64,000 bases of DNA from Shigella phage TB004. A model generated the notes under the pieces. That model saw only the letters and a list, made by a program, of their open reading frames with translations, did no database searches and was not told the origin of the DNA. Positions 15,288-17,551 of this stretch are shown here, one piece after another (positions within the stretch are counted from its first letter, which is position 1; the number at the start of each line of letters is the position of its first letter). The DNA is taken from the sequence record MW822011, one strand, 5' to 3'. A program made the translations under genes and the position numbers.

Positions 15288-15360
15288 TGGGAATTAGCCA
15301 AGTTGGTAAGGCACTGGATTTTGATTCCAGGATGCAAAGGTTCGAGTCCTTTATTCCCAG
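15288..15360 (+). tRNA. tRNA-Gln (anticodon TTG)
   Basis: Hand-folded cloverleaf, GGTTCGAGTCC T-arm; no encoded CCA. Confidence 0.8.
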
Positions 15361-15361
15361 C

Positions 15362-15448
15362 GCGAGAATGGTCAAATTGGTAAAGGCACAGCACTTAAAA
15401 TGCTGCGGAATGATTTCCTTGTGGGTTCGAGTCCCACTTCTCGCACCA
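15362..15448 (+). tRNA. tRNA-Leu (anticodon TAA), long variable arm
   Basis: Acceptor GCGAGAA/TTCTCGC, anticodon loop CTTAAAA, CCA encoded. Confidence 0.8.
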
Positions 15449-15453
15449 AATTT

Positions 15454-15527
<74 letters not shown>

Positions 15528-15537
15528 ATTTAATTTA

Positions 15538-15611
15538 CTCCGTGTAGCTCAGTTTGGTAGAGCGTCTGCTTTGGGAGCAGAATGTCGCAGGTTCAAATCC
15601 TGCCGCGGAGA
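15538..15611 (+). tRNA. tRNA-Pro (anticodon TGG)
   Basis: D-stem GCTC/GAGC, anticodon loop TTTGGGA, GGTTCAAATCC T-arm. Confidence 0.8.
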
Positions 15612-15613
15612 CT

Positions 15614-15703
15614 GGAGGCGTGGCAGAGTGGTTTAATGCACCGGTCTTGAAAACCGGCAGTCGCTCCGGCGACTCATAGGTTCAAATCCTATCGCCTCCG
15701 CCA
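15614..15703 (+). tRNA. tRNA-Ser (anticodon TGA), class II
   Basis: Long variable arm, anticodon loop CTTGAAA, CCA encoded. Confidence 0.8.
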
Positions 15704-15708
15704 GTTTT

Positions 15709-15784
15709 GCTGATTTAGCTCAGTAGGTAGAGCAACTCACTTGTAATGAGAAGGTCGGCGGTTCGATTCCGTCAATCAGCACCA
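15709..15784 (+). tRNA. tRNA-Thr (anticodon TGT)
   Basis: Anticodon loop CTTGTAA, GGTTCGATTCC T-arm, CCA encoded. Confidence 0.8.
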
Positions 15785-15785
15785 A

Positions 15786-15860
15786 GGCCCTGTAGCTGGA
15801 AGGTTCAAGCAAGCGACTCATAATCGCCAGATGGTGGTTCAATTCCACCCAGGGCCACCA
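15786..15860 (+). tRNA. tRNA-Ile/Met-type (anticodon CAT; the T4 homologue is the AUA-reading tRNA-Ile)
   Basis: Acceptor GGCCCTG/CAGGGCC, anticodon loop CTCATAA. Confidence 0.7.
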
Positions 15861-15873
15861 AATTAAGAATTAA

Positions 15874-15960
15874 GGGGAGTTATCCCGTAGAGGTAGCGGT
15901 GTGGACTGTAAATCCATTGTCATTGCGACTCGGGTGGTTCGACTCCATCACTCCCCACCA
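15874..15960 (+). tRNA. tRNA-Tyr (anticodon GTA), class II; not in the T4 set
   Basis: Anticodon loop CTGTAAA, long variable arm resembling E. coli tRNA-Tyr, GGTTCGACTCC T-arm; D-arm atypical. Confidence 0.6.
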
Positions 15961-15964
15961 ATTT

Positions 15965-16038
15965 GGATGTGTAGCTCAGTGGTAGAGCAGTTGACTGTTA
16001 ATCAATTGGTCCATGGTTCGAATCCATGCATGTCCGCC
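15965..16038 (+). tRNA. tRNA-Asn (anticodon GTT); not in the T4 set
   Basis: D-stem GCTC/GAGC, anticodon loop CTGTTAA, T-stem CATGG/CCATG. Confidence 0.7.
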
Positions 16039-16164
16039 AAATTTGTGACAACTGTCACATTAATATCTACTTGACGCGATTATAGGGTTGAACTGATCAC
16101 TCTTCTCTTAATTTCGTGTGAAGACATCTTGATTGTTGGAGTAGGTATTAATGTGAACTAATTA

Positions 16165-16241
16165 CGGGGTGTAACTCAATTGTATAGAGTAGCGGTCCTC
16201 TAAACCGCAGGTTAAAGGTTAGAATCCTTTCACCCTGGCCA
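16165..16241 (+). tRNA. tRNA-Arg (anticodon TCT)
   Basis: Anticodon stem GCGGT/ACCGC, loop CCTCTAA, CCA encoded. Confidence 0.7.
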
Positions 16242-16262: not shown

Positions 16263-16817
16263 ATGAGAAGTGATGTAGACTGGGACCAAATTAATTTGGC
16301 TATAAAAGCTGGATTAATATACCGTGGTAATTTTGAAATAACACAAGAACTAATTGAAAATGTTGCTTTTCTTAAAATAACAGACAAGAAAAAATTCTTT
16401 TCTATGACTAAAGCCAAACGCTTGTCAATATGGAAAGTATTTTGTAGGACTGCCGCCCTAAATCTTTTGAAATTTAAAGATGAATTTGATATAGAAAAAA
16501 GCTATCGGCAAGCTTTCGTATACATAATGGTAGATACTACAAATCCTAATTATTATAAAATAGGAAGAAGTATAGAACCCGATGTTAGAGTTATAACAGC
16601 AAATACATTTTCACCGTTTAAAAGTTTTAAAATAGTATCATTTAGATATTCCCAGGATGCAGTAGAACTTGAAAAATATATGCACAGCATTTATAATCAG
16701 GACCATATAAATGGCGAATGGTTTTTCTTTCATGACATAAGTTCCATAGTTAAAAAATTAGATACTAAATCTACACAATTTGAAATACCAAATGAGAAGC
16801 CGGGTCGCTACCGGTAA
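16263..16817 (+). CDS. T5orf172/MUG113-like (GIY-YIG superfamily) domain protein, possible homing-endonuclease relative
   Basis: 184-aa ORF with FVYIMVDTTNPNYYKIGRS motif, directly after tRNA-Arg. Confidence 0.5.
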   Translation: MRSDVDWDQINLAIKAGLIYRGNFEITQELIENVAFLKITDKKKFFSMTKAKRLSIWKVFCRTAALNLLKFKDEFDIEKSYRQAFVYIMVDTTNPNYYKIGRSIEPDVRVITANTFSPFKSFKIVSFRYSQDAVELEKYMHSIYNQDHINGEWFFFHDISSIVKKLDTKSTQFEIPNEKPGRYR

Positions 16818-16889
16818 GTCGTCGGACTGATGTTCCCTGCGTAAGGACTGGTCTTAATAAATCTTTACGATTTGTTAATATCCCCTTAC

Positions 16890-17065
16890 ATCACAGCAGA
16901 AACGGCGCACCGAATTATCGATTCGAGGAAATATCTTTGCCGTAAGCCGAGTAGCGTTTTTGACGGAACGTTCGGATATGGTCGAGATATGGCCTTTTAA
17001 AAATATTGAGTAGCGTCAACTACTTAATAACCGGGTTCGAATCCCGGCGTTTCGTACAAACACTT
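16890..17065 (+). ncRNA. candidate small stable RNA with tRNA-like T-arm, in the position of the T4 tRNA-cluster stable RNAs
   Basis: About 350 nt without a credible ORF; CCGGGTTCGAATCCCGG T-arm-like hairpin; terminator follows. Confidence 0.3.
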
Positions 17066-17097
17066 GCCTTAGCAGGTGGAACCCCGACAAGGTATAT

Positions 17098-17127
17098 AGC
17101 CCCTTCCGAAAGGTTGGGGCTTTTTTG
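17098..17127 (+). terminator. rho-independent terminator (AGCCCC...GGGGCT + T6)
   Basis: 6-bp GC stem followed by TTTTTT. Confidence 0.6.
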
Positions 17128-17135
17128 TATAAATA
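17128..17135 (+). promoter_or_regulatory. late promoter TATAAATA
   Basis: Exact TATAAATA 35 nt upstream of the ATG at 17171. Confidence 0.5.
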
Positions 17136-17170: not shown

Positions 17171-17551
17171 ATGTATACTTTTAATGAATTTTTAGCCGAA
17201 ACGGAAGTAATCACCGAAGCCGGCGTACGTATGACAAAAGAGAAATGGCAAGCTGCTTACGATGCTATTTCTGGTACAAAAACTAGTACAGAGTTTTTCA
17301 AAAACGTTCAAGCCATGTACGGTATCGACACTTCTAGCCAAAAAGAATATTACAGAGCTTCTAAAGCATTCAAAGATATTGTTAGTGGTGGTGTTTCTGC
17401 TAAATCGGGTTCGCCTAAAGTAAAACCTGCTCCTACCATTCCTAAACCTGCGACCCCTAAAGCAAAACCTGAGCCTAAGCCGGAAGTAAAAGCACCTCCT
17501 AAAGCTCCTGCTCTTAAGTTTGATACTTCTAGCCTGGAAAAAAAAATATAA
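17171..17551 (+). CDS. hypothetical protein with internal-protein-like N-terminus (MYTFNEFLAE) and Pro/Lys-rich tail; ends inside an A9 tract
   Basis: 126-aa ORF; N-terminus resembles the targeting sequence of the ip genes; stop is 2 nt after a run of nine A. Confidence 0.5.
   Translation: MYTFNEFLAETEVITEAGVRMTKEKWQAAYDAISGTKTSTEFFKNVQAMYGIDTSSQKEYYRASKAFKDIVSGGVSAKSGSPKVKPAPTIPKPATPKAKPEPKPEVKAPPKAPALKFDTSSLEKKI

Follow-up and report, generated by a model that had tools for sequence, protein, structure and literature searches.

The window analysed here (64,000 nucleotides of Shigella phage TB004, sequence record MW822011) comes from a T4-like phage (Tequatrovirus), and alignment identifies the interval at the distal end of its tRNA cluster as the phage's own copies of two stable RNA genes already known from T4, rnaD and rnaC, which are divergent only in part. 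Taking the account as a whole, we consider it very probable that both RNAs end a tRNA transcription unit closed by a terminator, and that rnaC is a tRNA-derived mimic which would be matured by the host and may act by its shape.

Organization of the locus and identity with the T4 genes

The annotated T4 record NC_000866, in which rnaD (71053-71171), rnaC (70908-71046) and tRNA-Arg (71173-71247) lie on the minus strand, served as reference. Pairwise alignment of rnaC was ungapped, with 138 of 139 positions identical and a single substitution, U to C at window position 16984. The rnaD genes aligned end to end and collinearly at about 90% identity, with three indels and a divergent central hairpin; as in T4, where the gene measures 119 nt, rnaD lies immediately 5' of rnaC, and conserved termini enclose a divergent centre. 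Its 5' 60 nt and 3' 25 nt are near-identical to those of T4 rnaD (species 2 RNA, T4s002) and the spacer to rnaC is the same, while the 3' end reads CACCG in the window and is an encoded CACCA in T4. The rnaC of T4 (species 1 RNA, T4s001) has the same length and is likewise the final RNA gene of its tRNA unit, followed by a trailer hairpin and a terminator, although the trailer 3' of rnaC is 9 nt shorter in the window.

Ten tRNA genes on the + strand (Gln, Leu, Gly, Pro, Ser, Thr, Met, Tyr, Asn and Arg, at 15288-16241) were detected by ARAGORN and Rfam, and the order tRNA cluster, rnaD, rnaC, hairpin and terminator is shared with T4, rnaC lying, like its T4 counterpart, at the distal cluster end between rnaD and the terminator. 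The two phages differ in the 5' neighbour of rnaD, which is tRNA-Arg directly in T4 and a 184-aa ORF with a MUG113/T5orf172 domain in the window. This ORF, located between tRNA-Arg and rnaD, appeared without counterpart in the alignment with T4, and its identification with trna.2 of phage T2L was ruled out, as the two share no similarity. The end of the ORF overlaps the start of rnaD by 26 nt, and the ORF stop codon (16815-16817) falls in the 3' side of the stem of the 5' hairpin of rnaD; the stable-RNA region begins within the upstream ORF, at 16792, and not at 16818. Moreover, the tRNA-Arg of the window differs in sequence from that of T4, and the ATACCA found directly 5' of rnaD corresponds to the final six bases of a T4-type tRNA-Arg, which has the look of a replacement scar. 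Inside the 184-aa ORF, about 95 nt 5' of rnaD, there is also a sigma-70-type match (TTGAAA-17-TATAAT, 11/12, at 16669-16697), which is a match to the consensus only.

The first-pass annotation of this DNA had proposed, from its letters, that the interval is the counterpart of the two T4 stable RNAs, and the alignments with the annotated T4 genes bear this out: the region can be aligned throughout both genes and, as described below, rnaC is clearly structured, with a significantly stable fold and compensatory changes in its helices. The divergence suggested as a possibility turned out to affect the central hairpin of rnaD and not rnaC, and a location next to tRNA-Arg holds for T4 but no longer for the window, because the 184-aa ORF is inserted between tRNA-Arg and rnaD. 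The T-arm-like CCGGG-TTCGAAT-CCCGG is indeed present, at 17031-17047 rather than 17029-17045. It had also been correctly recognized that the interval lacks a credible ORF, as no ORF other than TTG-started ones of 34-51 aa lies between the end of the 184-aa ORF and the ATG at 17171.

The region is contained in about 820 phage records, some of which label it rnaC/rnaD (RB27, RB7, RB5, T2L and Aplg8). In T2L, RB1 and RB3 both RNA genes are present 3' of a differently composed tRNA cluster (PMC2330249; also the T2L record). Rfam 15 holds no family for rnaC or rnaD, and only tRNAs reach the gathering score in the searched region. The sequence of rnaC was reportedly first determined in the 1970s.

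Table 1. Features of the rnaD-rnaC locus of phage TB004 (positions of the window)
Feature	Position	Strand	Evidence or remark
184-aa ORF, MUG113/T5orf172 (GIY-YIG-related) domain	16263..16817	+	Pfam PF13455 4.5e-09, PF10544 4e-06; phrog_5032 1.6e-59
rnaD (species 2 RNA homologue), 120 nt	16792..16911	+	End-to-end alignment with T4 rnaD
GAAUUA spacer between rnaD and rnaC, 6 nt	16912..16917	+	Common with T4
rnaC (species 1 RNA homologue), 139 nt, cloverleaf-like tRNA mimic	16918..17056	+	T4 alignment, MFE, covariance model
Acceptor-like stem, 7 bp, CGAUUCG/CGUUUCG	16919..16925 with 17048-17054	+	Covariation
Long composite arm, ~70 nt	16926..16996	+	RNAalifold consensus, pair counts
Long arm P2	16926-28/16994-96	+	
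Long arm P2b	16931-34/16987-90	+	
Long arm P3	16940-44/16977-81	+	
Long arm lower H1	16947-50/16972-74	+	
Long arm H1	16955-59/16966-70	+	
H1 loop UUGACG, kissing partner	16960..16965	+	Complementary to 17014-17019
Hairpin H2: 10-bp stem 17004-13/17020-29, 6-nt loop CGUCAA 17014-17019	17004..17029	+	
T-arm CCGGG-UUCGAAU-CCCGG	17031..17047	+	Stem covaries CCGGG/CCCGG, CCUGG/CCAGG, CUUGG/CCAAG
Trailer hairpin CACUUGC-CUUA-GCAGGUG	17061..17078	+	Between rnaC and terminator; conserved in T4, T2L
Intrinsic terminator, hairpin 17098-17121 + U6 tail	17098..17127	+	-16 kcal/mol, z = -3.4, GAAA tetraloop
TATAAATA, T4 late-promoter-type motif	17128..17135	+	36 nt 5' of ATG 17171

Structure and covariation of rnaC

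The structure of rnaC was derived from an alignment (A3) of 22 distinct homologues representing at least eight groups of T4-like phages, seven of them named genera. RNAalifold gave the consensus fold; a helix between two loops, spotted by eye, was added as a pseudoknot, and pairs were then counted. In this fold rnaC is cloverleaf-like, with four arms that meet at one junction (Table 1). As a single sequence, the rnaC of the window has a minimum free energy of -50.2 kcal/mol (z = -4.56), and its nested fold is that of the consensus.

Compensatory changes support the structure. In total 28 of the 46 pairs changed on both sides, and 98.1% of the 1012 cells hold standard pairs, compared with 35-44% after the 3' partners were shifted by 1-3 columns; in none of 500 shuffles was the pairing, the count of covarying pairs or the covariation score as high as observed. 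The acceptor-like stem (A3 columns 8-14/140-146) shows an A-U to G-C change that divides the sequences into 10 and 12, and its two central U.U mismatches are replaced by U-A and C-G in phiR1-RT, where the stem is fully Watson-Crick (CAGUCCG/CGGACUG). The T-arm, whose stem corresponds to columns 123-127/135-139, stacks directly on it to form a 12-bp minihelix; this stack, the G53-C61 pair and a T-loop that fits UUCRANY are features of tRNAs, and both helices covary. The T-arm 17-mer CCGGGTTCGAATCCCGG finds its sole match in the 64 kb at this place even when three mismatches are allowed (0.02 expected). In the long composite arm, both sides changed in 4/4, 5/8 and 5/5 pairs of helices 3, 4 and 5, respectively, and the stem of hairpin H2 carries compensatory changes at eight of its ten pairs.

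The terminal loops of H1 and H2 are complementary over 6 bp, and this loop-loop (kissing) helix is fully paired in all 22 sequences. It covaries as well: an A-U pair becomes G-C in the four sequences of the Klebsiella-phage group (UUGGCG/CGCCAA), and a C-G pair becomes U-A in phiR1-RT and L013 (UUGAUG/CAUCAA), so that the compensatory changes concern two different pairs, each limited to one sequence group. The kissing pairing could in principle take place between molecules instead of within one. The only long unpaired stretch of rnaC is the low-complexity UUUUAAAAAU.

A covariance model built from A3 (R1) gave one match to rnaC in the window, at the rnaC locus, with 177 bits, and matches of 128-165 bits in phages outside its training set. 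Its only other window match with a low E-value was tRNA-Asn (21 bits, E 0.0014), which aligned from end to end apart from a deletion of the long arm. The length of rnaC remains steady (152-155 nt including flanks) despite heavy change of sequence in the long arm, and rnaC is 99% identical between T4 and the window, amid neighbouring DNA that is about 90% identical or unrelated.

Comparison of rnaC with tRNAs and other RNA classes

rnaC shares with tRNAs (RF00005, especially class II) a 7-bp acceptor-like stem that continues into a 5-bp T-stem, a UUCGAAU T-loop, the meeting of four arms at one junction and the location inside tRNA operons. Unlike a tRNA, it has neither a D-arm of tRNA size nor a 7-nt anticodon loop, its loops are paired with each other, it is 139 nt long and, in T4-type phages, it does not encode CCA. 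ARAGORN made no call in the rnaC interval and no Rfam family matched it at the gathering score, the best weak match being tRNA-Sec (16963-17055, 17 bits against a cut-off of 47 bits, E 3.6). Since there is no free anticodon and, in T4-type phages, no encoded CCA, rnaC is not a decoding tRNA.

It could nevertheless be argued that the T-arm belongs to a real, unusually long tRNA gene of about 94 nt, class-II-like, a reading to which we give almost no credence. ARAGORN does call the 3' 94 nt tRNA-Lys(ttt) in G2133 (978-1071 of sequence L004), as its record annotates, the corresponding part is labelled a 95-nt tRNA-Met in PG7 and tRNA-OTHER in G9062, the weak tRNA-Sec match covers this part of the window, and an internal ACGGAAC is able to pair with GUUUCGU in T4-type rnaC. 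That internal acceptor is, however, broken in phiR1-RT and contains A.C in the EcS1/Moon type, and it is the terminal stem that covaries instead; the supposed anticodon loop CUUUUAA reads CUUACAA, CUUUGAA or CUUCAUA in other genera; ARAGORN and Rfam, at its gathering threshold, call no tRNA at rnaC in the window; CCA is not encoded in T4-type sequences; and mature T4 rnaC is annotated with 139 nt, not 94. The same interval has been read as protein-coding in many GenBank records, which carry "hypothetical protein" CDS calls over it, and the + strand does hold ORFs of 42 and 51 aa with TTG starts; but indels of 1-2 nt among homologues (alignment columns 70 and 89-90) break any reading frame, the substitutions in rnaC compensate for RNA helices, against coding, and the T4 record lists the products as small stable RNAs, RNAC being visible on Northern blots (PMC9697503), so that the chance of small proteins being encoded here is negligible in our view. 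Both the long-tRNA and the small-ORF readings can be considered effectively excluded.

A mimic of tRNA-Lys or decoy for the anticodon nuclease PrrC, suggested by the likeness of the loop CUUUUAA to that of tRNA-Lys(UUU), was rejected, as the loop is not conserved and the internal acceptor is broken in phiR1-RT. Neither ARAGORN nor Rfam (E <= 10) detected a tmRNA, and tmRNA, Y-RNA and any other Rfam family were discarded, with no match at the gathering score and just noise at E <= 10. Conceptually, the tRNA-like domain of tmRNA and YrlA resemble rnaC as stable, non-decoding RNAs that join an acceptor/T-arm module to another body. They share no match in sequence or structure with rnaC, which lacks a tag ORF and a G.U alanine identity pair and, in contrast to YrlA, has no Ro-binding helix made by the RNA ends. 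T4 DNA packaging is not known to need an RNA. The prohead pRNA of phi29 is comparable to rnaC in having two mutually complementary loops that covary between related phages, while differing in sequence and fold; a further likeness is that rnaC is classed as late in T4 (PMC9697503).

Features of rnaD

rnaD is predicted to consist of a 5' hairpin, GCCGG-GUCGCUA-CCGGU (16799-16815), and a long irregular hairpin that differs from phage to phage in its distal part (minimum free energy -34.4 kcal/mol, z = -2.0). Fourteen distinct homologues, all from Tequatrovirus-like loci, are near-invariant over the 5' ~60 nt and the 3' ~25 nt, and their centre holds one of three unrelated hairpin modules, namely the window type, the T4 type and the T2L/L012 type. 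The consensus of the 5' hairpin is RCCGG-GUCGCUA-CCGGY, with A-U, G-C or G.U as closing pair. The basal helices never vary, and the fold therefore stays a prediction. The L012 sequence combines an rnaC identical to that of the window with another rnaD centre, suggesting modular exchange. Overall, rnaD may be described as a less constrained companion RNA made of a 5' hairpin and a long hairpin with an exchangeable tip.

The 3' end of rnaD (GGCGCACC-A/G, followed by AAUUA) takes the place that the 3' end of a tRNA has 5' of rnaC in other genera, and hints that rnaD might derive from a degenerate tRNA. Its origin as a diverged duplicate of rnaC was rejected, as the rnaC covariance model gave no match on rnaD. 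A hammerhead suggested by CUGAUG...GAAAC was also dismissed: the core reads CUGAUGU (CUGAUGG in T4), the conserved A is missing, and Rfam reports no hammerhead at E <= 10.

Terminator, trailer and downstream motif

Between rnaC and the end of the unit lies a conserved trailer hairpin, possibly a processing site. The unit of tRNAs and stable RNAs is closed by an intrinsic terminator, a G+C-rich hairpin, AGCCCCUUCC-GAAA-GGUUGGGGCU, directly followed by U6, and none of 200 shuffles folded as well; in phages G2133 and NBG2 the corresponding site carries a terminator annotation. The strong terminator claimed by the first-pass annotation at this position thus exists, but it is weaker than that of T4 because two U.U mismatches replace a perfect 10-bp stem, and on account of these internal mismatches a strict consensus scanner does not call it.

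Immediately downstream, and outside the RNA genes, TATAAATA precedes an ORF of 126 aa (phrog_2280) that starts at ATG 17171. The window contains 13 copies of this motif where 11 are expected, which is not above chance, and therefore only the location 36 nt 5' of the ATG argues for a late promoter. It was not found at the corresponding place in T4 or T2L.

Distribution of rnaC among T4-like phages

A megablast search with the region against 50,697 phage records gave 766 matching records, nearly all of T4-like phages, those matched infecting Escherichia, Shigella, Yersinia, Salmonella, Enterobacter and Citrobacter. Beyond Tequatrovirus-like phages, distant blastn searches showed that only the rnaC part is conserved, and not rnaD. 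There rnaC is located within tRNA clusters: between tRNA-Phe and tRNA-Trp in Kagamiyamavirus EcS1, between tRNA-Met and tRNA-Gly in Moonvirus Moon, between tRNA-Trp and tRNA-Gly in Karamvirus PG7 and fGh-Ecl01, and directly 5' of tRNA-Trp in Winklervirus Virsaitis27 and Tegunavirus phiR1-RT. In these six phages only a few nucleotides separate rnaC from the flanking tRNAs inside the cluster. Klebsiella phages (Marfavirus F48 and kv_tblp5) also carry rnaC. Conserved short spacers flank rnaC (...CCA-(A)AUUA-rnaC-NCAA...), (A)AUUA parting the CCA of the upstream tRNA from rnaC in the other genera. At the 3' side, the Klebsiella-phage group has a true UCCA, and the NCAA of the remaining phages looks like a decayed CCA.

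A degenerate rnaC pattern recovered 24 environmental loci (14 in IMG/VR and 10 in metagenomes), mostly near-identical to known phages. The rnaC pattern had no match in 185,579 bacterial and archaeal species genomes, and blastn gave none in 5,426 complete E. coli genomes; on these two results a host or prophage origin was ruled out. The phages screened with the R1 model were closer to T4 than the T4-like phages of Vibrio, Aeromonas, Acinetobacter and cyanobacteria. Within the searches made, rnaC is phage-specific and moves with phage tRNA clusters. The family is absent from Rfam and was seen here only in T4-like phages of Enterobacterales.

Maturation and possible roles

A 12-bp stack of acceptor and T-stem is a minimal substrate of RNase P, and a UUCGAAU loop with a G-C closing pair is a substrate of TrmA and TruB. 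As the acceptor/T minihelix is of the kind recognised by RNase P and by T-loop enzymes, rnaC is probably excised and stabilised by the tRNA machinery of the host, which would cut it from a polycistronic precursor. The annotated 5' end of T4 rnaC (U1), however, lies 1 nt upstream of the place expected for a canonical RNase P cut, before C2. In the fold of rnaC, the position of the D-arm holds the composite arm of ~70 nt and that of the anticodon arm the 10-bp hairpin, and the pairing of their terminal loops over 6 bp leaves no free anticodon. With the loops occupied by each other, and with the fold and not a single-stranded sequence being conserved, we infer an action of rnaC in trans that depends on its shape. 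It might serve as a decoy or scaffold for a tRNA-binding protein of host or phage, a suggestion that we make with low confidence; we know of no protein partner of rnaC.

T4 deletions of the tRNA region are viable, and the region is dispensable in laboratory hosts; rnaC might likewise be dispensable there but bring an advantage in certain natural hosts. Publications up to 2025, reviews among them, describe the roles of rnaC and rnaD as unknown (PMC3014915, PMC9697503, PMC12685909), and our literature searches for a reported function of either RNA found only statements to this effect. A dual-omics study classed T4 RNAC and RNAD as late and used a Northern blot with an RNAC probe as validation, on which RNAC accumulated as a stable transcript (PMC9697503). 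The only hint of a function is a single SNP within rnaD that evolved convergently in every line when a T4-like phage was adapted to a semi-permissive E. coli (PMC12685909).

Other explanations for the persistence of these RNAs have to be weighed against a function of rnaC in trans. Both might be non-functional relics, pseudo-tRNAs or by-products of processing that are stable merely through their structure, in keeping with the absence of an assigned function in the literature, with the dispensability of the region in laboratory hosts and with the free exchange of the central part of rnaD between phages. Yet the length and all the helices of rnaC, including the tertiary loop-loop pairing, were kept through many compensatory changes in at least eight phage groups, rnaC is 99% identical between T4 and the window amid DNA that is less similar or unrelated, and the rnaD SNP recurred in every adapted line (PMC12685909), all of which makes relics an unlikely explanation. 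Somewhat less improbable, though still not favoured by us, is a role in cis, in which the two modules would aid RNase P, RNase E or RNase III on the tRNA precursor or guard its 3' end. Such a role would be consistent with the constant location of rnaC within or at the end of tRNA operons, with its conserved short spacers (AAUUA 5' and NCAA 3') and with its being the last structured element before the terminator in T4-type phages. In other genera, however, rnaC is internal, between two tRNAs with their own processing signals; a spacer would need neither a covarying tertiary kissing helix nor a constant length of 139 nt; and in T4 the excised RNA accumulates as a stable species (PMC9697503). Regulation of host or phage mRNAs by base pairing of rnaC or rnaD, evoked by the loose label "small regulatory RNAs" that the literature applies to both (PMC9697503), seems quite improbable, considering that the conserved loops of rnaC pair with each other and that the sole long unpaired stretch is of low complexity.

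Going beyond an action of rnaC through its shape, we tentatively raise the possibility, which we rate as doubtful, that rnaC founds an undescribed class of phage tRNA-derived RNAs whose loops either lock a tRNA-shaped decoy or build a pRNA-like oligomer. As a decoy, rnaC would titrate a host factor that binds tRNA, such as a defence nuclease directed at tRNAs or a modifying enzyme. As an oligomer, its loops would pair between molecules, hand in hand, as those of phi29 pRNA do.

Significance

The presence of the two RNAs in this phage is a rediscovery, as rnaD and rnaC are already annotated in T4, T2L and several RB phages. New are the covariation-supported structure and the family definition of rnaC, for which there is no Rfam family, together with a list of mis-annotations in public records. 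In most of the about 820 related records the region is unannotated or carries a spurious "hypothetical protein" or a false 94-nt tRNA-Lys, tRNA-Met or tRNA-OTHER, and the practical use of our results lies in the annotation of T4-like phage records. Both RNAs belong to the T4 gene products without assigned function. The fold of rnaC, and the conservation of rnaC alone in the tRNA clusters of distant genera, provide concrete mutations and a family model with which its function can be tested and, should rnaC prove to belong to a class of decoys or oligomers, this would give a first functional handle on it.

Gene arrangement around the small RNA genes

The central hairpin of rnaD, the species 2 RNA homologue, occurs in three unrelated versions, with the flanks of this gene and rnaC, the species 1 RNA homologue, remaining identical (comparison of the homologous phage locus L012, the window and T2L, L036 1690-1805). 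Since L012 combines an rnaC identical to that of the window with a T2L-type rnaD centre, sequence comparison indicates that modules have been swapped within a small RNA gene.

Features of the window around rnaD and rnaC
Feature	Window position	Description
tRNA genes	15288-16241	Gln, Leu, Gly, Pro, Ser, Thr, Met, Tyr, Asn, Arg
tRNA-Arg	16165-16241	sequence differs from T4-type tRNA-Arg
184-aa ORF	16263-16817	MUG113/T5orf172 (GIY-YIG-related) domain; phrog_5032
Sigma-70-type promoter match	16669-16697	TTGAAA-17 nt-TATAAT; 11/12, near-consensus
ATACCA	16786-16791	directly 5' of rnaD; final six bases of T4-type tRNA-Arg gene
Trailer hairpin, 7-bp	17061-17078	CACUUGC-CUUA-GCAGGUG; between rnaC 3' end and terminator

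In the window, tRNA-Arg and rnaD are separated by an inserted ORF of 184 aa, whose 3' end overlaps rnaD across 26 nt. This ORF has no counterpart in T4 and no relationship to T2L trna.2, and is common to only about 15 phage records at coverage of at least 80%. The ORF may represent a mobile element gene of the homing-endonuclease kind, analogous to segB. The hexamer preceding rnaD, situated 550 nt 3' of the window's own tRNA-Arg, looks like a recombination scar, judging from its match to the T4-type gene end. The tRNA set itself mixes T4-type and T2L-type genes, lacks segB and a tRNA-Ile at the T4 position, and includes a tRNA-Tyr barely above the Rfam cut-off (30.2 versus 29 bits).

The sigma-70-type match lies within the 184-aa ORF, approximately 95 nt upstream of rnaD, and this predicted promoter could be one that rnaD-rnaC have to themselves in the arrangement of the window. 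Downstream of rnaC, the trailer hairpin is conserved in both T4 and T2L, where it is followed by 9 nt (TGCCGCAAC) that the window lacks.

Annotation and 3' ends of rnaC homologues

In public records, the 3' 94 nt of rnaC are annotated as tRNA-Lys(ttt) in G2133 (L004 978-1071) and as tRNA-OTHER in G9062 (NC_054920), and its 3' part as tRNA-Met in PG7 (L006 1258-1352), while in many other records 'hypothetical protein' CDSs are placed across rnaC and rnaD; all these calls appear to be mis-annotations. In the homologue of Erwinia phage Virsaitis27 (L008 ~1195-1352), the T-loop is aberrant (GGUGC-AUCCC): it is shorter by one base and lacks UUCGA. Either degeneration of this copy or an error in sequencing could account for the difference. 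In the Klebsiella-phage group (L005, L010, L011, L032, L033), the acceptor-like stem of rnaC is followed by U-CCA-A, a properly encoded CCA end; the corresponding bases are U-ACA-A in T4-type phages and U-UCA-A in phiR1-RT. With such an encoded end, the RNAs of the Klebsiella-phage group might be substrates of CCA-dependent enzymes.
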